A DNA stretch of 64,000 nucleotides from an uncultured delta proteobacterium (GCA_963789265.1 CAWBKB010000007.1:256001-320000), one strand, 5' to 3'. Positions 2,481 through 15,061 are shown, counted from the first letter of the stretch. The notes: a model not told the origin generated them from the sequence alone. Made by a program: numbers and translations.

Positions 2481-4500
2481 CTACTTTACCAATCTCTTTG
2501 CTTGGTTGGCAAAAACCGCTGACCCCAATGCCTTGGTCGGGACGGCCACTGGTCCCAAAGCAGCGGGCTGAACGGAAAAAACAGGATCGTATTCCGGAAC
2601 AATCTCTTTCAGAATGCGGCGTACTTCCGTTTCATCATTACCCGTTCGCACCATTTCCACAGCATTATCTATTTTCGCGATGATCTTGGAGCCCGGGGCG
2701 TCTATTTCGTTGAAAACCTTTATTTTAGCATGTGAGGTCGCGAGGCACTCTTCGCTATCCTGACATATTTCTTCCGACAACTTTTCACCAGGTCTAAGGC
2801 CGATAAATTCTATGGGAATTTCATCTTCTTGCTTTCCCGATAGCTGGAACAACTGGTGTACCAGGTCAACAATTCTGATTGGGTCACCCATATTCAGGAC
2901 CATGATCTGGCCGGACTTTCCAAGAGCGGTAGCTTGCAGTACCAGCGCGACCGCTTCCGGAATGGTCATGAAGTATCTGCGCATATCCGGATGGGTAATA
3001 GTAACAGGTCCTCCCCGGGCGATCTGGTCCATAAATATCGGGACCACGCTACCTTCGGAGGCAAGGACGTTTCCAAACCTCACTGATAGGAAGCGCGTGC
3101 GGCTTACGCGGCCAAATGCCTGACAGTAAATCTCACATACTCTCTTGGTTGCGCCCATGACGCTGATGGGATTAACGGCTTTGTCTGTCGATATCAACAA
3201 GAAGCGCGAGACGCCGAATTGATCCGAAGCCCTGGCCAGCGTCTGGACTCCTTCAACATTGTTCTTGAAGCACTCCACTGCATTGAGTTCCTGCATGGGA
3301 ACGTGCTTGTAGGCCGCGGCATGGAATACCAGGTCCGGACGTAACTTTTCAAATTCATTGTCAATTCTAGCCCGGTCCCTCACGTCGCACAACAGCGGGA
3401 TTACCACGCTGTCCGGAGCAAATTCCAGGAGCCGCCTGTGCACGAAAAATAAACTATTTTCGGAACGTTCCACTAATATAAGGCTCTTCGGCCTTCGTTT
3501 CAGGACCTGACGGCAGAGTTCGGACCCGATGCTCCCCCCCGCGCCTGTAACGAGAACAACTTTGCCCGCGATAAGGTTTCTGAACCTGCTCAGTATCTAT
3601 TTTGACTTCCTCGCGTCCAAGCAGGTCTGAGAGGGTGATATCCCTGAGCTGAGTCAGGGTTGATGATTCGGCTATGATTTCCACTAGAGAGGGCAAAGTC
3701 TTGACTGTTAAGTTTAAGTTCTTCAGAGTGTTATAAATGCGCTTCATCTGGGCGCGATTTGCAGAAGGAATGGCCACAATTACCAATTGGACCGGATTAT
3801 CCCGAATGTAATCCGGAATGTCTTCCACCTTGCCCTTTACTCTAATACCGTGAATCGTTAACCGCTGCTTTTTCGGATCGTCGTCGAAAATTGCCTCCAC
3901 TTGGAACTGCGACTCCGGATTTCGAATAATTTCACGAACGATCATCTCGCCGGCATCGCCTGCTCCGACCACCACCGCCCGCCGCCGCGTGCTGTTCGAA
4001 TCCCCGCGGCGGACATAGAGTCGAGCCCGCTCACGGAGAAGCCTCATGCCTACGCGGGCCCCACCGATCAGTACGGTGCTCGTGAAGAAGTCTATGAGAA
4101 TCACCCCTCTAGGAATTCGCAGATATTCCCGGATCATGGGCAACAAGAACAGCGCCAGGGCGCATATAAGGCCGTGCAGCAATAATGTCGGGATATCGCT
4201 CAGTCCCACATAGCGCCAGTTGGTGGAATGCGCTTTCAAAACATAAAAGAAGAATATCTTCAAAAAAACTACGTACGGTAATAGGAGCAAGCGCTGGTGA
4301 AAAAATTTGAACGGAACCCGAAAATCAAAGCGGAATTCGTAAGAAAACCAAAAGCTGATCGCAGCAAGAAGAACGATTATGGCGAAGAGCAAATGATTGA
4401 AATGAACGTACCGTCCTACAAAGCTCAAAGCCTTTTCGGCCTGTTTCAGGAGTCGATTTGTTGTAGACGGATTGTCCGGAACCGGCATCACAGATCTCAA
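2481..4500 (-). pseudogene. CapD/WbpM-type nucleoside-diphosphate sugar dehydratase split by a +1 frameshift (probably a sequencing error)
   Basis: ORFs 3454..4500 (TM helices, GAGDAG, DLLGRE) and 2481..3473 (HAAAYKHVP, STDKAVNP, MGATKR, RFGNVL). Removing one base of the run at 3577-3579 restores QNLIAGKVVLVTGAGGSIG. Confidence 0.85.
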
Positions 4501-4751
4501 ATTTGAAAGGAACCTCCCGGCGGGATCGGCTCAATAGCAGCTCAGCAAAGCCTACTCGACAAATTATGAACCGGTCGAACTGCAAAAGCAAGCCGCGTTT
4601 AACAACCGTTTTCTGCTCTCCGACTTGCTAATAATCTTGATAGCCCTAGAGTTCAAGAGTGCTTGATCATTTCTTTGCGGACAAGTAATCCTGTTATCGG
4701 CAGAATCATCGCAAGACAAGGACCAACCTTCGGCATCACGGAGCACATGAA

Positions 4752-5912
4752 TTGAACCAATTCGACTTTGAATCTCCGGCTGAAGATTCACCCGGTTTCA
4801 CCAAACTCGGCCCGGCTTCCAACGAAACCCTATCGGGTGTCGTCCGTCGGCTCGTAGCGGATTTAAGTACGGATCGACCTGTCGGTCCGGATCGTTGCAG
4901 CGATTGGACTACTCATCATATCTCAACGGCCTTGTCCCAAGGCATCGGCCCGTGGCTGTACAGGGCTCTTGAGGACCATCCCGAGGTTGAACTGGCGCCA
5001 GATTTCCGTGAGAGGCTCAGCCAGGCATACGCGCAATCCATGATTCACAGCCTTTCGAACCAAGCGTGTTTTCGAGAAGTTGTTGCCTTTTTTGCGAGGG
5101 AACAGATACCTGTGTTGGCCCTCAAGGGGGTCTATCTCGGGACTTTTGTTTACAGAAACCCTGCTCTCAGGCCGATGTGCGATCTGGATTTGTTGGTACG
5201 CGAGGAACATTTTGCTCAGGCGAGGAAGCTCTTGGACAAGCTGGGATTCGGGATCGGCGCGGAGCCGCTACAAGGGGCGTACAGTAAATTGCAGCCCGCA
5301 CTGGCTTATATTCGGCCGGGAACGATTCCGTGCGCAGTGGATCTTCACAGCGCACTTTTATCAATGGATTACTACAGCTTCCCTTCTTCGCTCGTTTGGC
5401 AAGACGCGGTGGAGGGCCAACTTTATGGGCAGCCTGTATTCTTCCTGTCAAACGAGCTTAATTTTATCCATCTGGGAATCCATACGCTGACCCACCTCAA
5501 TCTGATACGTGACTGGCTCGATCTGATTCTTTTTTTGCGCCGTATTACCCTTGACTGGGACAGGCTGGCCTCGTTAGCGGGATCGCTTGGCGTCTTGAGG
5601 CCGTTGTATTGGGTTTTTCGCGACCTTAATGAAAAATGGGGGGTCCTGGCACCGAAGCGGTTTGTCGGTTCACTCGCCGCTTATGTCCCGGCACGCATGG
5701 AAGACCGGGTAATCCGGCACAGATTCAGGTACATCTGGCGAATAGTGGCTAGACTCCGACTCCTCCCTAGTTGGGAACTTCGACTACGGTATTTGCGTAT
5801 GAGGATATTCTCTCCGGCCGGTCAAGGGGACCAAGCGTTGGGGCTGCGAGGGCGCCTAATGTTCGTATTATCTAAAGTGAACTTGCTGGTGGCCTTTTTC
5901 CGGCGGCGCTGA
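4752..5912 (+). CDS. Nucleotidyltransferase (NTP_transf_5-like), lasso-cluster-associated type
   Basis: LALKG...Y.NPALRPMCDLDLLV, VDLH and RDWLDL motifs; converges on the lasso operon. Confidence 0.8.
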   Translation: MNQFDFESPAEDSPGFTKLGPASNETLSGVVRRLVADLSTDRPVGPDRCSDWTTHHISTALSQGIGPWLYRALEDHPEVELAPDFRERLSQAYAQSMIHSLSNQACFREVVAFFAREQIPVLALKGVYLGTFVYRNPALRPMCDLDLLVREEHFAQARKLLDKLGFGIGAEPLQGAYSKLQPALAYIRPGTIPCAVDLHSALLSMDYYSFPSSLVWQDAVEGQLYGQPVFFLSNELNFIHLGIHTLTHLNLIRDWLDLILFLRRITLDWDRLASLAGSLGVLRPLYWVFRDLNEKWGVLAPKRFVGSLAAYVPARMEDRVIRHRFRYIWRIVARLRLLPSWELRLRYLRMRIFSPAGQGDQALGLRGRLMFVLSKVNLLVAFFRRR

Positions 5913-5924
5913 TTTGGAGCTTCG

Positions 5925-5986
5925 TAGTGGGACAGGCTTCCAGCCTGTCATTTTGTTGATAGACAGGCAAGATGCCTGTCCCACTA
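5925..5986. repeat. REP-like palindrome (GTGGGACAGGC family)
   Basis: TAGTGGGACAGGCTTCCAGCCTGTC...GACAGGCAAGATGCCTGTCCCACTA between convergent genes; same family as 11185..11237. Confidence 0.75.
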
Positions 5987-6059
5987 ATACAATGGCATAG
6001 GATCAGCGTTTGTTGATCTCGATCTAACGACGCTTTTCCTGAATTATGAATTGGACCTC

Positions 6060-7865
6060 TCAGCTTGCCGTCTTTTCCAACAGGCCGCGACTCTTGAACT
6101 TGTCCTTAAACACTTCCGGCAGCCTCACGGCCTGCACTTCTTTGGTGCCGTGTTTCTTGAACAACACCTGACAACCGGCATGTTCTCTTATTTTTGGTAT
6201 AAATTTGAAGCGACTTGCCTTAGCCTCACTAATGAATCCAAGCACGTCGTGAGAGAATTCCTCCACAAGCATTTGCCGGTCCACGGTTTCGGCGGTGCCG
6301 GCTGCATGCCAGGTCAAATCGAATTTTATGAAGTCGTGGATCGGGTGGTCTTCGAAGCCCAGGTCGTTCACCACTTGCCTGACGAAGACAGAAATAGCGG
6401 CCAAAGAGTGCGAGTCGCCCAAGTGGTTGAAGATGTTGTCGGATGGAAGCTCCAAATCGACTATCCGTTCAAGAAGACTATCCGGATATCCCAATTGCGC
6501 GTCTCTCAATAGCAAGAAAGCCGTGTAACGCATGTGCAACAGGTTGAGCATTAGATACGTGACCCGGACGAAAAGCTCTCTGTCAAGATGCTCAGGAACG
6601 TAATGATAAAGCGTTGAAAACACCTGAGGGTACTTCTTTATAAACTCCATATCCACCGGAGTGGATGGGTAAACGGAGAAATCCGATAGATGTTGGTCTA
6701 TGGCAAGGGAGTGCCCGTACTGCTCGTACAATGGGCTCCCTGGAAAAGGCACGAGCAGGCGGAGATGCAAGGCGGCTTCGTCCCTATCTCCGGAGAAATA
6801 TATCTCGAGCATAAGACTCATAGTTTGGGCTACATCCTCGATCCGTTCCCGAGGAAAGCCCACGATAAATCCGCACGTGGCCAAGATGCCCAGTTCGCAG
6901 GCTTTGCGGACGATTTCGGGCGCGCGATTCAGCTTCAACTTCTTATTCACGATCTTCTGCATTCGGGGCGAGCCTGTTTCGATGCCGAAGAATATTTCAT
7001 CGCACCCTGCCTCGGCCATTTTAGAGAGCACTTCGTCGTCCACAGTGTCGACTCTTGAGAAACAGCTCCACGGTCTGCAAAGATTTTCTTCTACCAGGGC
7101 ATCGCATAGGTCGAGCAGCCACCTGCGATTCAGCGTCAAGAGATCATGCTCGAACCTAAGCTTCTTGGCTCCGAAATCGGCAACGATCTTCTTCACTATT
7201 TTGATTACGTTTTCCACAGACCTTTGGCGAAATCTTCCTTCAGCCATTTTGTTGGAAACACAATAGGAACATCTGAACGGACATCCACGACCCACGTCGA
7301 TGGGAATGTATTCCATCAACCCCATGGAGGGAAACAGACTGTAGTCGGGCAGAGGAAGAGTGTTCAAATCTCGTACAGGAGAGGCGTCGGGAGTTCTCAC
7401 TATCTTTCCGGCGTGACGCAATGTCAGTCCCGGGACCGACAGCAGGGCTTCCGGGTCGTCAAGCGATGCGATAATTCTGCCAATCGTATGATCGCATTCT
7501 CCTCGAACTACAACATCTACTTGTGGGAACACTTCTATGGTTTCCCTGTCTGTGTTGGAGGCCTGAACCCCTCCGAAGAGGATCTTGACGTTGGGTCTTT
7601 GTTCCTTAACAATTCCTGCGAATTTGACCAGGTCGAAATAGAAATTGCACCATGCGGAAAAGCCAACCACATCGGGGCCACGTGAAATAATCGTGCCAGG
7701 GACATCGGAAAAAGTTGGGTTTGAGCTTATGGCGTTTATATCAAGGATCTCGACGCCAAAACCGTCTTTGTGTAGCACTGTCGCCAGAGAAAGAAGGCCC
7801 AAGGGAACGTACGGCTCCGGACCTTTTTCTTTCAAAATAGGATTTGGAATGAGGAGAATCTTCAT
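6060..7865 (-). CDS. Cobalamin-binding radical SAM protein (class B methyltransferase-like)
   Basis: B12-binding N-domain (PLGLLSLA, DVVGFS, GGVQAS, VVRGECD), GRGCPFRCSYC, FGIETGS; its ATG overlaps the kinase-frame stop at 7862. Confidence 0.9.
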   Translation of the reverse strand: MKILLIPNPILKEKGPEPYVPLGLLSLATVLHKDGFGVEILDINAISSNPTFSDVPGTIISRGPDVVGFSAWCNFYFDLVKFAGIVKEQRPNVKILFGGVQASNTDRETIEVFPQVDVVVRGECDHTIGRIIASLDDPEALLSVPGLTLRHAGKIVRTPDASPVRDLNTLPLPDYSLFPSMGLMEYIPIDVGRGCPFRCSYCVSNKMAEGRFRQRSVENVIKIVKKIVADFGAKKLRFEHDLLTLNRRWLLDLCDALVEENLCRPWSCFSRVDTVDDEVLSKMAEAGCDEIFFGIETGSPRMQKIVNKKLKLNRAPEIVRKACELGILATCGFIVGFPRERIEDVAQTMSLMLEIYFSGDRDEAALHLRLLVPFPGSPLYEQYGHSLAIDQHLSDFSVYPSTPVDMEFIKKYPQVFSTLYHYVPEHLDRELFVRVTYLMLNLLHMRYTAFLLLRDAQLGYPDSLLERIVDLELPSDNIFNHLGDSHSLAAISVFVRQVVNDLGFEDHPIHDFIKFDLTWHAAGTAETVDRQMLVEEFSHDVLGFISEAKASRFKFIPKIREHAGCQVLFKKHGTKEVQAVRLPEVFKDKFKSRGLLEKTAS

Positions 7866-8774
7866 GTTTTTCCGGTCTTATCGGCTTGCGCTCCATTCAA
7901 AATGCCCTGCTCCAGCAGTTGCACCACATCTGACATAGTCGCGGCAGAGCGCGGTCTTATCAATCGCAGCGTCGGCACCCTTTCACACAGCTTCGCACAT
8001 TGATGGAAGTAGGACCCGGGCCTGGCATCATGCATCAGGCGAATCCAGTACCGAGTGGCGGACCAACTCAAACACCGCTCTATGGCGACTCACGTTTTCG
8101 ACCCGAACTGAAGGACCCTCCTCTAGGATGTACAAACGATACAGCGGCACGGCGTGTTGAGAAAATTCACCAGAAAATCGCCATGTAATCTTTTCTTCAA
8201 GAGGGTGTAATCCTTGGCTTTCTTGCGTAGAGCAACCAAAATGTTTCGCAGCATCGGGGAGAAGTTGTAGACCTGGAAAGCCGGGATATACCGACGCACC
8301 TGCACCGCCGACATCCACCACGGTGACGTCATCAGCTATCACTGCGTGGCCTCTGGAATGCAGAGCGGCTGCTATGAATGATTTTCCCGCGGTAGAGTCG
8401 CCCAGGAAGGCAACCGCGCCGCAGCCTAAATTCACGCAACTCGCGTGCAGAGTAACGTAACCCCGTTGATGGAGCAAAATAGAAAGGCCCAGAGTCTGGG
8501 CCAGCCCACCGAGCAATTTAATGTCACTTCCCGGTGCGGGTTGGCCTATGATTTCACGGCCATGGCTGACTCGGCATCGGCCCATCTTGTGGTAGGAGAA
8601 ATAGGCATCATCGGATTTGAGCTGCAGACACAAAGGGGTACCTACATCAGTAGGCCCCAGGGGCTCGGGCTTTCCAAGACGCATAACCACGTCGGCAGGG
8701 GCTTCCTGCTCGATCAAATCGGGGAGCGCAATGTCGCATTGAATCCCCATTCCATAAGCAAGATAGGAATACAT
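7862..8774 (-). CDS. HPr-kinase-like lasso peptide kinase (+1 frameshift at about 8051, probably artefactual)
   Basis: LHASCV, Walker A GDSTAGKS, ADDV. Removing the extra G in CAC TCG G TAC joins ...ELVRHS to YWIRL...HQCAKL...RLIRPRS. The ATG overlaps the precursor stop (TGATG). Confidence 0.8.
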
Positions 8775-8938
8775 CAAGAATGGTTCCCAAGACCTTGCTC
8801 GTTTTGGCCTCCCTGGCCCGTGTGCTCTGTAAGCCTCTCAACCGCGCCATGGACAATCAGCTCGGGGGGCGTGTACGGCTTCTTGGTCTGGGCGTCTTTG
8901 GTTTCCGAGGCGGGAAATTCCTCTTGATCCCGTGTCAC
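8774..8938 (-). CDS. Lasso peptide precursor (54 aa)
   Basis: RBS AAAGGAG then GTG: MTRDQEEFPASETKDAQTKKPYTPPELIVHGAVERLTE-HTGQGGQNEQGLGNHS. Leader YxxPxL...G...T motif, Glu9 acceptor, C-terminal Ser. Confidence 0.85.
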   Translation of the reverse strand: MTRDQEEFPASETKDAQTKKPYTPPELIVHGAVERLTEHTGQGGQNEQGLGNHS

Positions 8939-9009
8939 GGGGCTGGCTCCTTTCGTCCATTTGTTGCGGTGGACTTTTTCCCAATACATATTGATTATAG
9001 GGTTGATTC

Positions 9010-9076
9010 TCGAGTGTGACAAGCGGACTGTCGTCTCTAAACATGTGACGCACCGGATGACATCTTCACTCCGCAT
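9010..9076 (-). pseudogene. 5' remnant of a HEPN (DUF86) toxin gene
   Basis: MRSEDVIR followed, after a 1-nt shift, by RHMF; resembles the DxxRLxHM start of DUF86 and lies directly after the MNT gene. Confidence 0.5.
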
Positions 9077-9083
9077 ATTGGAC

Positions 9084-9371
9084 CTATGCAGAAGCCACTA
9101 CTTGGTCACGGAAGTACTTGCTAAGATCTCGTGCGGTTCGTAAGTCAACTTTTCGTCCGCCCAAGAGTTCGGATAGCTCTCGTTCCATTCCGGCGATCCG
9201 AAGCAAACCGGGAATGTGTTCCGGATCAAACTCCACAAGAAAGTCTATATCGCTCTCCGGCCCGAAGTCCTCTCGCAAGTACGATCCGAATACGGACAGT
9301 TTCCGGATGTGATGGATTCTACAGAACTCTTCGATGAAATTCTTGGGAATGTCGGGACGCTGTCTGTCCAT
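9084..9371 (-). CDS. Minimal nucleotidyltransferase (MNT antitoxin)
   Basis: [39 protein letters not shown]. The TAG at 9084 looks premature because the frame continues VQYAE*. Confidence 0.8.
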
Positions 9372-9450
9372 GTTATCCCTCCGTCGGATATTACTTCGGT
9401 AAATTGCAGCAAAACAGCACTGACCTGGCGTCGGGGACGCTGCCAAGTCA

Positions 9451-9506
9451 GTGGCACCCAACATCCGGTCCTGGGTGCCACGGATCTGGGCTTTGCCAGA
9501 TCCGTG
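9451..9506. repeat. Two adjoining hairpins (REP-like)
   Basis: GTGGCACCCA...TGGGTGCCAC and ACGGATCTGG...CCAGATCCGT. Confidence 0.5.
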
Positions 9507-9559
9507 CTGGATTTAGCTGATTCTTCATTGTATGATCGCGAAATGATATAACACTGGCT

Positions 9560-11554
9560 TCACAGCTCCAAGCCTGACCGCGCCAACCATTGACCGAATG
9601 ATGCAGCATGCATCATATAGTGCAGCGACCCCACAGGTCGCGCTCGGAATCTCGAATAAGCCCTGCTGAGGGCCTGCACGTCGATGTACTCCGGAATAGC
9701 CTTTGAACTGCCCAGTATCGCCTCTTCCGCGAGTTCTCGGTCCAACCGCATCAGCCAATAGCTGACGCTGGGCCCAAAGTCCACTTTGTCTGCGCGGTGC
9801 TGAATCTCTCCTGGCAATATCCCCGCCATTGCGCGGCGCATGACCATTCTGGTCAGCCCTTTGTGCAGCTTCTGCTCCGGCGGAAGGGCCAGACAAAACT
9901 CCATGAGCCTTTGATCCCGAAACGGGTGCCGCACCTCCATCTTGAAGCGGGCTGACATCTTATTGATGGATTCTATCTGATGGGTAATACCACCCCAGGT
10001 GATTTCATACCAGTGTACAAGCCTGGAATTCTTCGGAGGCCCCAGCCTATGGGCCTGCAACGCATTGAATCGTTCCTTGAGCCCAATTCGTTTTGCAAAA
10101 TCTCGGTTGATAAAGGTGTCGCGGTCCCAGGGCCGCTCGCCCCGCCCGGAAAGAAGTCTCCAGGTACGCCGAACCCCGGCCGGTGTGAGTGGTTTGACGG
10201 CCTGTCGCCACAGCAACCCCCAAAAACCGCAATGCCTATTTCTGGAAAGAGCACGCACTTCACGCAGCAACGTGGGCAATTCCCCTTTTCGCAAAAGTTC
10301 CGGAAGCCAACCGTAACCGTGAGATACGGTGGTGTCACCGTCAATGCCGTCAAGGACTACACGAACTCCCAATCCCAAAACCAACCCTCCCAATGAGGCG
10401 GCATAAGAATTGGGCGCATCAAACGGATCGTCGTGGTCCCAGGGATCGCACTCAACGTACGGCAGGGTTCCTACCTGCTCACCGTCGAAATAATGTGGCT
10501 CGATCCCACCCTGATCGACCACGGCCTTTATGTAGCCTCTTTCATCACATTCGGAAACATTGTTGTAGACCAATGACATAGCCCGCAGTATTTCGGTTCT
10601 TGTTTCGGGCAATAGATTTCGTGCCACGCAAGTCACCGATGAAGAATCGAGGCCTCCACTTAAGCTGGACATCATCGGATAAGCGCTCCGTAATCGGCAG
10701 CGGACGGCTTCGGAGAAAATTTCTCGGAACGCGTCGGCATATTCCGCATCGGAGCCCAGGTGCAATTCTCTGTTGGGATCGAGGGACCAGTAGCATTTGA
10801 GCCGGTATCGGTTCGGTTCGATAGTTATGCTGTGCCCGGGAGGGAGACGCTGAATCCCCTTGTAAAAGGTCATGACCTGGTCATCGGACATTCCTATGAG
10901 ATAGTCGCCAACCATAAGTTCATTGAGCCGTCTCGGGATCTCCGGCAAGGCGAACAGAGCGCGAATTTCCGACCCGAAGACAAATACTTTATCCGAAAGG
11001 TAGTAATAGAAAGGTCTGTCCCCGGACGCGTCCCGGGCACAGAACGCGACGCTCTGTTTGCGATCCACGATGCAGAAGGCGAAATCCCCCACGAGCTTCT
11101 CTGCACAGCCTTCGCCCCATTTTTCGTACGCCCGGAGTATAATGCAGCTATCGGTAATGTCCCGCGCAGGCCCTCCTGTTCTGGGTGGGACAGGCATCTT
11201 GCCTGTCTCTAAATGACAGGCAAGATGCCTGTCCCACTGGTCCTTGGGTAGAACCGCCACTTCTTGGATGGCGCCTTGACGTGAGCCCCACAGAGCGGAA
11301 ACGAGTTCATCCCGGTTGTCTATGCGGGCATCAGCAGTGATGACGAAACGCCCGGTTTCATCGGATTTTGGGAGTTTTTCAAGCAAGGACTCCGGCGTAG
11401 TATGGAGCATCAGATGCCCGAGCCCCAACGAGCCCCCATTCCAGACCGACGATCCATCGGGACCCCGATAAGCTATCGCTTCGAGCATACCAGTAACCAC
11501 GGAGCTATCCAGAGGTCTTCCGTCGCGGAAAAATGCGCCGACGAGGCCGCTCAT
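9560..11554 (-). CDS. Lasso peptide cyclase (asparagine-synthetase-like C protein)
   Basis: N-terminal MSG (no catalytic Cys), RGPDG, ARIDNRDEL, GDFAF, SLSGGLDSS, PFRDQRLMEF; adjacent to B2 and RRE genes. Confidence 0.9.
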   Translation of the reverse strand: MSGLVGAFFRDGRPLDSSVVTGMLEAIAYRGPDGSSVWNGGSLGLGHLMLHTTPESLLEKLPKSDETGRFVITADARIDNRDELVSALWGSRQGAIQEVAVLPKDQWDRHLACHLETGKMPVPPRTGGPARDITDSCIILRAYEKWGEGCAEKLVGDFAFCIVDRKQSVAFCARDASGDRPFYYYLSDKVFVFGSEIRALFALPEIPRRLNELMVGDYLIGMSDDQVMTFYKGIQRLPPGHSITIEPNRYRLKCYWSLDPNRELHLGSDAEYADAFREIFSEAVRCRLRSAYPMMSSLSGGLDSSSVTCVARNLLPETRTEILRAMSLVYNNVSECDERGYIKAVVDQGGIEPHYFDGEQVGTLPYVECDPWDHDDPFDAPNSYAASLGGLVLGLGVRVVLDGIDGDTTVSHGYGWLPELLRKGELPTLLREVRALSRNRHCGFWGLLWRQAVKPLTPAGVRRTWRLLSGRGERPWDRDTFINRDFAKRIGLKERFNALQAHRLGPPKNSRLVHWYEITWGGITHQIESINKMSARFKMEVRHPFRDQRLMEFCLALPPEQKLHKGLTRMVMRRAMAGILPGEIQHRADKVDFGPSVSYWLMRLDRELAEEAILGSSKAIPEYIDVQALSRAYSRFRARPVGSLHYMMHAASFGQWLARSGLEL
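11185..11237. repeat. Perfect 23-bp inverted repeat (REP-like) inside the cyclase ORF
   Basis: GTGGGACAGGCATCTTGCCTGTC-tctaaat-GACAGGCAAGATGCCTGTCCCAC. Confidence 0.85.
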
Positions 11555-11994
11555 AGGCTATTCCCGTCGAAGCGAGGCAACACAGTGAAGCGACTTGAGG
11601 CCGGTGCGCCCACAACTATCACCCCCTGTGTTTCCACCCAGGCATGGGCTTCCAAGCGCCCGTCTTCTCCTCTGCTTACACCGATGCGCATGAGCGCAGG
11701 ATAACCCCAGCACGCAAATAATATCTTTGCAGCAAACGCTTGAGTAAGACACCCGGCGCCAAAAGGCATTCGCCGGCTTACAGCGGTAACGGCCCAGACT
11801 ATGCGTTCAGAAGAGGGAGACAAGGAGTTCGCTCGTTTTGAAAACCGTTGCGGCAACTCATCGGCGAGATGGAGCAGTCTCCTGAACGAAAACAGCCGGA
11901 GAGCCGCTCCCACGAGGCCCAGTACGAGAGCGGCGCTGAGAAGGAGGCGCCGATCAATCGAGGAGAGACCTACAAACTTACGCAGGAGCCTCAT
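11551..11994 (-). CDS. Lasso peptide B2 leader peptidase (transglutaminase-like)
   Basis: CLTQA...IGV...EAHAWVE catalytic Cys/His. Confidence 0.9.
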   Translation of the reverse strand: MRLLRKFVGLSSIDRRLLLSAALVLGLVGAALRLFSFRRLLHLADELPQRFSKRANSLSPSSERIVWAVTAVSRRMPFGAGCLTQAFAAKILFACWGYPALMRIGVSRGEDGRLEAHAWVETQGVIVVGAPASSRFTVLPRFDGNSL

Positions 11995-12295
11995 TCCTAA
12001 CCTCTATAAGACCTGCGTCCTCAAGTTTGCCGAGAAGCACAATGAGGTCTTTTTCACACCGCTCCACATCAACATCGTATTCACGTTCAATTTGGTTTCG
12101 GATTTGCTCGACTCTAATCGGCTCGCTCAGCAGGCTCCAAATTCGGGCACCAACTTCATTCAGGCCGTAGTACATGCCGTCATTGAGATTGAGAATCGCG
12201 GCCTCACCAGTCAAGTCACAGGATACCTGGTCCTTGCTCACGACCACGATCGATCCATGAGAAATTTCTGACATCGGGGATGATTCTCGATCCAA
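11978..12295 (-). CDS. PqqD-family RiPP recognition element (lasso B1)
   Basis: DQVSCDLTGEAAILNL..GMYYGLNEVGARIWSLL...EYDV...DL..LL.KLEDAGLI. Confidence 0.9.
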   Translation of the reverse strand: MDRESSPMSEISHGSIVVVSKDQVSCDLTGEAAILNLNDGMYYGLNEVGARIWSLLSEPIRVEQIRNQIEREYDVDVERCEKDLIVLLGKLEDAGLIEVRNEAPA

Positions 12296-12751: not shown

Positions 12752-15061
12752 TCACGCGCTGCGCTTCTGATAGTACCTGTGGTAGTGATAATCGTACCGG
12801 CCGCGACCGTACTTGTAGTAGCTATAGCCTGACGACCTTCCCCCGGCCATGTTCAACACTATTCCGAGTACACGCCCCTGGCCTCGGAACACAGAGTCTT
12901 TTGCCTGCCGCAACACCTCGACAGGAGTCTTGCCGGCTTTCATCACGAGGACCAGGCCGTCGGCGTAGCTGGAAAGAATTGTCGCATCAACTAGCCCCAG
13001 CACCGGAGGAGCATCAAGGATCACATAATCAAACGTTTTCCTACACGCTTCAAGGATTTGCCGGAAGATTTTGGTCTTTAGCAGGGGCACAGGGTTGTCC
13101 GGCGTAGTCCCTGACGTCATGTAGAACAGCCCCGGGATATGGGATTTCCTGATAGCATCCTTGATTTCCACGCACTTACCCGTTATCAGATCGCTGAGGC
13201 CGGTGGCGACGGGCTCGCTATTGAACACTTCGTGAATGCGCGGCCTCCTCAGATCGCAGTCGATTATAAGCACCTTCTTATGCTCTGATGAGATAACTGT
13301 CGCAATAACAACGGAAACGAGGGTCTTCCCTTCAAGAGGGAGCGCGCTGGAGACACACATTATTGAAGACCCTGTATCGGCTGGGATACAGGTTGAAATA
13401 GTATTTTGAATGATCCGGACCGCATCGGTGAACGGAGATGAAGGAAATTCATGAGCCATAAATTCAAATCGGGTTTTCTTCGGGTTAATTTGCATGAAAC
13501 CACGGCCGCGCTCTATTATCGGAACCGCTCCCAGAATAGGAAGATTGAGATGTTTCTCAATCTCATCGGGCGTCTTGGCGGTAGTGTCGATAATAGCGAG
13601 CCCCACGGCCAAGACAATCCCTCCAAACAATCCTAACATAGCGCCCATTAGTATGATCTTGTGTTTCTGAGGGCTTATCGGCGCTACCGGCAGCGTGGGC
13701 GAGCTGTTTATCGTAACATTGTGGCCCATAATCCCATGATCCAATTCGGCCTGCTTCGTCTTCTGGAGGAGCATCAGATACGTTTGGCTGTTGGCCTGAA
13801 CCAACTTCTTCAGGATCTCGGACTGAACCGCCAGGGATTTTATATTCAACGCGGCTTGCTTTGTCTTCTCGTACGCGGCTTTGGACACGGCCTCGTTTTT
13901 GCGCGCCTGTTCCACAGCAGAAGACAAAGTGTTTTTTTCGATTTCGGCTATGGCCTCCTCCATTGACCGAATTTGGTTCTTCAACAAGGCCATCTTGAAG
14001 TACTCGGGAGCATATATGGCCTTCTTGCCGGTATATTCAGACTTCAGCGAAGCAAGTTTGCTCCTCAGGGTCTGCAAATACTCATTGGTAACATTGGGAG
14101 GCAAAGCCTTCTCTTTTTCATATTGCTCAGCCTCGAGGTTGATGCGCTGCTCTTTGGATTGCAGCACGGATTCGTTGGCTTTTTCAAAGGAATTGAGCAC
14201 TTGATTGGCGGTCCTATCGGTAAAAAACACCCCGTGCTCTTTAGTGAACTCGAGGAGCTTGGCCTCAGACTGTTTCAATTGTTTCTCGGTTTCAGCCAAC
14301 TCGCCGTTCAACCAGGATCTGACTCTGGAAACGATCTCGCCCCTCTTTCGGCGGGTTTCGTCTATATACGTATTGAGGTAGGCCCGGAGCCTCCTCTTTG
14401 CCACCAACGGATCTGATGCCCCCATTTCCACCCGTATTAACTGCGTCCCTTTAATAGGCTTAACGGTAATTTGTGAAAGGACGGCGCTGATCGCCGCGTC
14501 GTTCCCGCGCTCCCGCGCGTCGGCGTCTCTGCTGTCCGACCCGGCGGGATTTGACGGCTCGGCCGTCGGAACCTCGGGTTGGGAAGCCGGCGCCATGTCG
14601 GCAGGCTTCTGACTCGCGGCTTCGGACGACCGCGCTTCATTCACCCGTTCCAGGAACTTTGCCGCCAGGCTTCTGCTTTGCAAAGACTCTATCTGAGTCT
14701 GGTAATAAAGATCGAATTGACCGAAAAACGAAAACAAATCATTCAAATTCGTTGAAGTTGGAAATATCTTTTCAATTTCTATGGTTGCACGCGAACGGTA
14801 CAGAGGAGTGGCATGGTAAGCGTAGCCAGCTCCAATACTCGCGCCCAAGAGGAGCATCGCGATTACGATCCATTTTCGATAAAGTATTGCATATAGATAG
14901 TCCGAGAGAGGTTTGCGCTCTTCAAACGGCACATCTATGAACCCGGGGATTTGGCCGTAGCCCTGGGTCAATTCCATCCACGGTGGTTGGCCGTTCTCGC
15001 TGAGGGTTTTGCCCGGGGGAAGAGGATTGCTCATTCCGGAACCCTGGTTGATGCCATTCAT
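12752..15061 (-). CDS. wzc: Polysaccharide co-polymerase / BY tyrosine kinase (Wzc/GumC)
   Basis: Two TM segments, coiled coil, Walker A SALPLEGKT, IDCDLRRP, ILDAPP, C-terminal Tyr cluster. Confidence 0.85.
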   Translation of the reverse strand: MNGINQGSGMSNPLPPGKTLSENGQPPWMELTQGYGQIPGFIDVPFEERKPLSDYLYAILYRKWIVIAMLLLGASIGAGYAYHATPLYRSRATIEIEKIFPTSTNLNDLFSFFGQFDLYYQTQIESLQSRSLAAKFLERVNEARSSEAASQKPADMAPASQPEVPTAEPSNPAGSDSRDADARERGNDAAISAVLSQITVKPIKGTQLIRVEMGASDPLVAKRRLRAYLNTYIDETRRKRGEIVSRVRSWLNGELAETEKQLKQSEAKLLEFTKEHGVFFTDRTANQVLNSFEKANESVLQSKEQRINLEAEQYEKEKALPPNVTNEYLQTLRSKLASLKSEYTGKKAIYAPEYFKMALLKNQIRSMEEAIAEIEKNTLSSAVEQARKNEAVSKAAYEKTKQAALNIKSLAVQSEILKKLVQANSQTYLMLLQKTKQAELDHGIMGHNVTINSSPTLPVAPISPQKHKIILMGAMLGLFGGIVLAVGLAIIDTTAKTPDEIEKHLNLPILGAVPIIERGRGFMQINPKKTRFEFMAHEFPSSPFTDAVRIIQNTISTCIPADTGSSIMCVSSALPLEGKTLVSVVIATVISSEHKKVLIIDCDLRRPRIHEVFNSEPVATGLSDLITGKCVEIKDAIRKSHIPGLFYMTSGTTPDNPVPLLKTKIFRQILEACRKTFDYVILDAPPVLGLVDATILSSYADGLVLVMKAGKTPVEVLRQAKDSVFRGQGRVLGIVLNMAGGRSSGYSYYKYGRGRYDYHYHRYYQKRSA

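Follow-up and report, generated by a model that had tools for sequence, protein, structure and literature searches.

Does a cobalamin-binding radical S-adenosylmethionine (rSAM) enzyme take part in the maturation of a lasso peptide and, if so, what does it do to the product? The question is raised by positions 4752-12295 of a 64,000-nucleotide stretch of DNA from an uncultured delta proteobacterium (GCA_963789265.1 CAWBKB010000007.1:256001-320000), hereafter the window. The original prediction had placed here, on one strand, genes for a leader-recognition protein, a B2 peptidase, a cyclase, a precursor, a kinase and a B12-binding rSAM protein, followed by a convergent nucleotidyltransferase, and all of these are present. 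The locus is a genuine lasso peptide cluster of a Desulfomonilaceae bacterium: its gene order is repeated in 14 other genomes and is thus not a product of chance. The rSAM enzyme very probably belongs to the lasso pathway, and there is a good probability that the peptide itself is its substrate.

Gene families were assigned with Pfam and NCBIfam models scored against curated cut-offs. Read along the minus strand, the operon opens with B1 (11978-12295), a PqqD-like recognition element (RRE) for peptides that are made by the ribosome and modified after translation (RiPPs), that is, a leader-binding chaperone; it exceeds the Pfam cut-off (PF05402, 68.6 bits; cut-off 23.4) and stays slightly under that of the lasso-specific model NF033536 lasso_PqqD_Bac (72.9 bits; cut-off 80). 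The transglutaminase-like leader peptidase B2 (11551-11994; NF033537 lasso_biosyn_B2, 94.3 bits, cut-off 33; PF13471, 80.1 bits) and the asparagine-synthetase-like macrolactam cyclase C (9560-11554; NF033535, 697.2 bits, cut-off 525; PF00733, 152.5 bits) both pass their NCBIfam cut-offs and, with the Pfam match of B1, uphold the assignment to the lasso class. Downstream lie the gene for a 54-residue precursor peptide (8774-8938), with a GTG start 8 nt past AAAGGAG, that for an HprK-like lasso peptide kinase (7862-8774; 303 codons if one extra base is ignored; PF07475, 25.3 bits against a cut-off of 33.3) and that for a 601-residue, ApyD-like, B12-binding rSAM (6060-7865; PF02310, 55.7 bits, cut-off 32.1; PF04055, 80.4 bits). 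B1 and B2 overlap by 17 nt, B2 and C by ATGA, and the previously noted overlaps of precursor with kinase (TGATG) and kinase with rSAM (ATGA) are both seen in the sequence. The earlier gene list stands as named; what it overlooked were an MntA-like insertion and a frameshift in the assembled kinase gene.

Orthologues of the rSAM were found in 15 of 70 Desulfomonilaceae genomes, the window's included, spanning seven genera; 12 are intact (53-100% identity) and three are broken. Up to 20 kb was fetched around each of the 14 other loci. Directly upstream of the rSAM gene, all 14 carry the precursor and kinase genes, and B1-B2-C recur in the same order at 12 of the 12 loci with a long enough contig, the other two stopping at contig edges. 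In 6 of 12 loci the rSAM gene overlaps the kinase stop or starts within 2 nt of it. The outcome that would have spoken against the prediction, rSAM homologues unlinked to lasso genes, is thus not what these genomes hold. Approximately 45 metagenomic orthologue clusters at 53-80% identity also exist, our linkage counts covering the genome loci; among the matches listed when metagenomes were scanned with the rSAM alignment, all were distant, at 23-34% identity.

Outside the orthologous group the association disappears. Relatives at 33-36% identity (L201 and L202) are not lasso-linked, and none of 153 rSAM loci at a greater distance has a kinase gene. Among 401 sampled Desulfobacterota genomes, of which the top candidates per genome were scored, orthologue-level rSAMs occurred in three from the Desulfomonilaceae (one being the window's) and in none of the 393 outside the family. 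At 20 loci of kinase homologues from other Desulfobacterota families, lasso genes are present 16 times, a nucleotidyltransferase gene of family PF14907 (NTP_transf_5) nine times and a MiaB-like rSAM once, while a B12-rSAM is found at none. The orthologous rSAM clade appears to be confined to the Desulfomonilaceae and, because kinase loci elsewhere lack a B12-rSAM, it is on this sampling an addition made in this lineage to kinase-type lasso clusters, which form a wider family.

Some loci met in these comparisons have features of their own. L203 (G032:C110, 337-8605) is a second type of Desulfomonilaceae lasso cluster, with kinase-B1-B2-C, four tandem precursor paralogues (4081-5421), a PF14907 gene and a B12-rSAM of 488 residues that is 27% identical to the window's and scores best on HpnJ (181 bits) and ApyD (156 bits). 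L201 (G056:C302, 822-13933), where the rSAM relative is 35% identical, also encodes two B12-rSAM-like proteins, a SPASM rSAM, another rSAM, an ATP-binding cassette (ABC) transporter and an 88-residue open reading frame that is PqqD-like by eye and has no Pfam match; it is probably another RiPP cluster. The kinase-type lasso cluster L209 (G143:C52), of another Desulfobacterota family, holds a MiaB/RimO-like rSAM gene (UPF0004 and Radical_SAM; 6084-7319) between its precursor and cyclase genes. Directly 3' of the rSAM gene, three loci in two genera (L191, 7267-7635; L192, 8410-8781; L193, 11057-11407) encode a small protein of 116-123 residues with a hydrophobic N-terminus and the motif GTWEAEVMGS, which the window lacks and which matched no family in Pfam.

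A closer look at one relative indicates which genes travel together. Against G026, a genome of the same genus (L195, G026:C19; window 5925-11291), the locus is a mosaic: DNA identity is 84-88% in the CapD-like gene, the nucleotidyltransferase gene, the first ~90 codons of the cyclase gene, B2, B1 and the Wzz gene, and a patchy 65-71% in the body of the cyclase gene, the precursor, the kinase and the rSAM. Protein identities are 86% for B1 and 72% for both B2 and the nucleotidyltransferase in the conserved flank, and 52%, 48% and 54% for the cyclase, kinase and rSAM in the divergent block. Because the drop in G026 is limited to this block, and three other close relatives show an even 73-78% identity throughout the locus, we conclude that one unit, made up of the cyclase body, precursor, kinase and rSAM, was replaced while B1, B2 and the nucleotidyltransferase stayed in place. 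Taken as indirect evidence, the exchange suggests that reading of the core peptide is a task which the rSAM shares with the cyclase and the kinase.

What the enzymes would have to read is a short and variable peptide. The window's leader ends in KKPYTPPELIVHGAVERLTE; in the predicted core, HTGQGGQNEQGLGNHS, Glu9 is the ring acceptor and the last residue is Ser (...GLGNHS). In an alignment of 13 intact precursors (the window's and 12 others), Y22, P25, L27, G31, V33, T37 and E38 are invariant, so that Thr37-Glu38 ends the leader in 13 of 13; a Thr at the penultimate leader position is the rule for lasso leaders in the available text of PMC10368454. The acceptor, Asp or Glu, lies in ten precursors at position 9, inside the span of positions 7-9 expected of a lasso core, and in three an Asp occupies position 10. 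Apart from the acceptor, the cores keep only a Gly, as residue 5 or 6, and the tail motif (R/H/Y/F)-Ser. The tail Ser is strictly C-terminal in the window and in L193; the remark that the core ends in Ser is thus right for the window, though 11 of the 12 other intact precursors continue for 1-2 residues beyond it. Lasso cores usually begin with Gly, Ala, Ser or Cys, and residue 1 is here H, N, R, E, Q or A. Since a non-Gly first residue after T-x also recurs in kinase-type lasso clusters of other Desulfobacterota families, the predicted cut site is supported, not proven. The NCBIfam lasso-precursor models match the window's peptide weakly (NF033528, 25.1 bits, cut-off 33; NF033521, 17.1 bits, cut-off 19). 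Two rSAM-less kinase-type clusters of another family, L210 and L212 (G236 and G423; precursors at ~10470-10880), have leaders, KKPYQKPELxVHGSVEKITE, that are almost the window's; in their cores Glu is residue 7, and the last four residues are SGTV or SGPV.

The kinase gene as assembled is in two pieces in different frames (8028-8774 and 7862-8071), the overlap with the rSAM gene belonging to the second piece. The extra base, at 8051, is missing from contigs of two public soil runs (X1 and X2, from the same study, at a depth of 2.4-3.2 and possibly from the source sample of the window assembly), in which a single frame is restored. Of the 11 homologue loci whose kinase has no other break, ten keep a single frame, and L192 is split as well. 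A second split gene lies in the window itself: the CapD-like gene (3454-4500 and 2481-3473, minus strand), whose Polysacc_synt_2 and CoA_binding_3 parts are in different frames. Because the read contigs lack the base at 8051 and the CapD-like gene is split too, an assembly indel is the simplest reading; the kinase frameshift is probably an assembly error, and the nine-contig assembly probably carries scattered single-base indels. In 13 kinases, H110 and K131 are invariant and D148 and D149 are kept in at least 90%. According to the available text of PMC9266682, His, Lys and Asp-Asp are essential for catalysis in lasso kinases, and the window's kinase retains them, as expected of the paeninodin-type enzyme originally proposed.

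The rSAM carries the radical SAM motif C195-x3-C199-x2-C202 (CxxxCxxC), invariant in 72 sequences. Its best named family is NF050148 rSAM_ApyD, with 305.6 bits over residues 21-439, short of the cut-off of 750; lower scores were returned by the BchE and HpnJ models (141 bits), the P-methyltransferase models (115-123), AprD4 (96) and TIGR03975 (99.8; cut-off 282). Judged by these scores, the enzyme is ApyD-like and not ApyD. Residues 441-601 had no Pfam match, and residues 430-601 no usable match in the Protein Atlas. Complex prediction with the rSAM (72-row alignment) and the precursor (13 rows) gave a score of 0.01 and a mark of 0.32, neither for nor against binding. Because CobS and CbiD are encoded in the genome, a cobamide supply in the host is plausible. 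Methylation of the phosphate by the rSAM was set aside, the P-methyltransferase models reaching 115-123 bits against 305 for ApyD; the mention of phosphorus as a methylation target in the original prediction finds no special support here.

How does this ensemble compare with characterised systems? With the paeninodin-type clusters (PadeK, ThcoK, SyanK) it shares an HprK-like kinase gene beside split B1/B2, C and precursor genes, the catalytic residues of that kinase and, in the window, a Ser at the C-terminus of the core. Unlike them, most of the Desulfomonilaceae precursors (11 of the 12 intact ones other than the window's) place 1-2 residues after the conserved Ser, no ABC exporter gene adjoins the window's cluster, the kinase match is under the Pfam gathering score (25.3 versus 33.3), and a B12-rSAM is coupled to the kinase, an arrangement not described in the available text of the reviews PMC8498205 and PMC9266682. 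The same texts describe pseudomycoidin, in which the kinase PsmK and the nucleotidyltransferase PsmN give a phosphoglycosylated C-terminal Ser. The likeness to that cluster, a kinase and a nucleotidyltransferase-family gene among lasso genes, is one of gene content; the differences are that the window's nucleotidyltransferase gene is convergent and, in some genomes, unlinked, and that an rSAM is added.

For the rSAM itself, the nearest described parallel is ApyD of the aminopyruvatide pathway, which in the available text of PMC10635010 C-beta-methylates its RiPP substrate, ApyA, at the penultimate Tyr and needs cobalamin. Both enzymes combine a B12 domain with the CxxxCxxC core, both sit in RiPP clusters, and the ApyD site is a residue beside the C-terminus. 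Unlike ApyD, however, the window's rSAM leaves model positions 449-645 unmatched and does not reach the equivalog cut-off; ApyD is described with an RRE, and none was detected here by Pfam or hhalign; and the window lacks the MNIO, P450 and Tyr-Leu-Tyr motif partners. The domain layout is also that of PoyB/PoyC and of TIGR03975 rSAM_ocin_1, class B rSAM C-methyltransferases of RiPPs, a class that methylates unactivated carbons of ribosomal peptides (available text of PMC11285071). The window's enzyme differs in falling well under the TIGR03975 cut-off, and no member of the class has been reported with lasso machinery.

From these parallels we consider it fairly likely that the locus is a functional lasso cluster, with B1-B2-C-precursor-kinase-rSAM as its conserved unit, and that it yields a Ser-phosphorylated, C-methylated lasso peptide. 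B1, by its family membership, would bind the leader (KKPYxxPEL...G.VE.(L/I)TE). The HprK-like kinase, by analogy with PadeK, ThcoK and PsmK, would phosphorylate the linear precursor on the conserved Ser that lies at its C-terminus or beside it. The ApyD-like B12-rSAM, using methylcobalamin and a 5'-deoxyadenosyl radical, may place a methyl group on an unactivated carbon in the core of the same precursor, a step suggested by its nearest characterised relative and by genetic linkage; as to the site, our best guess is the (R/H/Y/F)-Ser tail. That the linear precursor is C-methylated, probably close to this conserved tail, is a tentative assignment that we place a little short of an even chance. 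To judge from the alignment, B2 would then cleave behind Thr(-2)-Glu(-1) and so release the leader, and C would close a ring of nine residues (ten in three relatives) between an unusual non-Gly residue 1 and the Asp or Glu. Finally, the PF14907 nucleotidyltransferase, whose presence in the cluster had been correctly predicted (4752-5912, plus strand; 134.8 bits, cut-off 31.2), might decorate the phosphate, as in pseudomycoidin.

Several observations weigh against this scheme. The predicted cleavage site could be one residue off, given the nature of residue 1 and the ten-residue ring in three relatives. The cores are highly variable, with only Gly5/6, Asp/Glu9/10 and the tail Ser kept, so that any target site for the rSAM is a guess. 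The enzyme scores far under the ApyD cut-off and its distant non-lasso relatives score alike (277-356 bits); because these relatives reach similar values, the type of reaction is something we infer. Other B12-rSAM enzymes form cross-links, contract rings or catalyse dehydrations. None of the solved structures is close; the best match is AprD4, a sugar diol dehydratase, followed by an unnamed rSAM, OxsB, TokK and CysS, and some relatives that share the B12 domain, AprD4 among them, are not methyltransferases. The C-terminal domain of the rSAM gave no sign of an RRE: hhalign against the B1 profile returned a probability of 0.5% and Pfam was empty. In the window's genome the MntA-like insertion divides B1-B2-C from precursor-kinase-rSAM, and three relatives have broken copies of the cassette.

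Among the alternatives, the one that survives best keeps the rSAM in the lasso pathway but has it act on an appendage built on the Ser by the kinase and the PF14907 enzyme, a phosphate-linked sugar or nucleotide, by methylation or deoxygenation of the sugar. We regard it as unlikely. It would account for the joint presence of kinase, PF14907 and B12-rSAM genes in two unrelated lasso cluster types, that of the window and that of L203, for the tight coupling of the rSAM gene to the kinase gene and for the sugar-acting AprD4 as the closest structure; by NCBIfam score, however, the peptide-acting ApyD is far ahead of AprD4 (305 versus 96 bits). An enzyme reading a generic appendage would not be expected to follow the cyclase body, precursor and kinase in an exchange that leaves the nucleotidyltransferase with the flank, as happened between the window and G026. 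The PF14907 gene, moreover, adjoins the cassette at 8 of 14 homologous loci and not at the other six; a search of five genomes without it at the cassette located one elsewhere in four and none in G046 (86% complete). Nor was a kinase gene present at any of the distant rSAM loci (0 of 153).

A second alternative also takes the peptide as substrate, and supposes that the rSAM does something other than methylate it: the outcome could be a cross-link (C-C, C-O or C-S), or a radical elimination or rearrangement at phospho-Ser. The shortfall on the ApyD model leaves room for such chemistry, phospho-Ser could be the substrate if the tight pairing with the kinase is a guide, and a B12-rSAM cross-links ortho-tyrosines in biphenomycin-like RiPPs (available text of PMC12257519). 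The cores, however, lack a conserved pair of cross-linkable residues and the closest characterised relative is a methyltransferase, and we consider this reading quite unlikely.

It is improbable, thirdly, that the cluster is decaying in the window's genome and makes no product. Such a view would draw on the frameshifted kinase, on the stops and frame breaks in the copies of G027, G029 and G040, and on the gene at 9084-9374 (minus strand), an MntA-like minimal nucleotidyltransferase (PF01909, 52.2 bits) that lies between the cyclase and precursor genes and so splits the operon. Set against it, the frameshift is missing from the contigs of both read sets, the split CapD-like gene in the same assembly fits indel errors, all other genes are intact, and a promoter-like site precedes the precursor gene. 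This site (8994-9022, minus strand), a sigma-70-like TTGTCA-17-TATAAT with 11 of 12 consensus positions, follows the MntA-like gene; the number of such sites in the region does not exceed the shuffled expectation, so it is a pattern match only. The MntA-like protein reaches 40.6 bits on NF047752 MntA_antitoxin, a type VII antitoxin family, under the cut-off of 60; tblastn gave no match to it in any of the 14 orthologous cassette loci, no gene for a HEPN partner comes after it, and a Pfam search of 8939-9076 for the remnant of a HEPN partner gave a chance-level match only (E 0.24). Because it is missing from all 14 loci, we read this gene as an insertion outside the conserved cassette and not as a fourth tailoring enzyme. 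As to the relatives, frame breaks or stops affect the rSAM, kinase or cyclase in L198 (G029), L199 (G027), L200 (G040) and L205 (G030), and in L199 the precursor reads into the kinase frame; these breaks could be real decay or long-read assembly errors.

Lastly, that the kinase, rSAM and nucleotidyltransferase tailor the surrounding exopolysaccharide, with the lasso genes as mere neighbours, is close to refuted and extremely improbable: the window's cassette does lie between a Wzz/tyrosine-kinase gene (12752-15061) and the CapD-like gene (2481-4500), but only the window's genus and G040 have polysaccharide genes beside it, the start of the kinase gene lies within the end of the precursor gene (TGATG), and kinase homologues in other Desulfobacterota families keep company with lasso genes at 16 of 20 loci. 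At six loci from other genera the neighbours are unrelated, among them nitrogenase genes, two-component systems and a Kup transporter. Because the flanking genes vary in this way between genera, the polysaccharide setting is incidental, and action of the rSAM on the polysaccharide, the alternative that the original prediction itself had named, is not supported by gene context. Between the rSAM gene and the convergent nucleotidyltransferase gene lies a terminator-like hairpin (5931-5949, plus strand) with an 8-bp stem and a T-rich tail, a pattern match only.

The reading we prefer, an rSAM that acts on the lasso precursor, would add to the reviewed set of modifications. The available text of PMC9266682 (2022), which claims to compile all known lasso modifications, mentions radical SAM enzymes for other RiPPs only; the modifications reviewed are disulfide formation, phosphorylation, glycosylation, O-methylation, acetylation, hydroxylation, epimerisation, citrullination and aspartimide formation, all by non-radical enzymes. 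No rSAM- or cobalamin-tailored lasso peptide turned up in the full-text literature or in the available text of the reviews PMC8498205 (2021), PMC9266682 and PMC11285071 (2024), in agreement with the earlier statement that no characterised lasso pathway with a translationally coupled B12-rSAM was known, though a bioinformatic mention elsewhere is possible. A literature search for lasso peptides with Desulfomonil returned only an unrelated cave-sediment study, and one on polyphosphorylated peptides and HPr kinase gave HPr kinase papers of no relevance. Kinase-type lasso clusters are known; the added, conserved B12-rSAM is a new element and suggests an undescribed kind of decoration.

On balance we lean, if only somewhat, towards seeing here the first lasso family with a cobalamin rSAM step, in which cyclase, precursor, kinase and rSAM form an exchangeable specificity block. 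The constant pairing of rSAM and kinase makes it possible that the radical step needs the phospho-Ser tail or takes place at it, and so goes beyond simple side-chain methylation. Block exchange of the kind observed in G026 is a usable clue to the enzymes that read a core peptide, and the cassette family offers a peptide-linked anchor for the trio of kinase, B12-rSAM and PF14907 protein. With about a dozen natural pairs of precursor and enzyme from seven genera, it provides material for deriving substrate rules and, if our reading is true, the B12-rSAM step would bring C-H functionalisation to the lasso scaffold.

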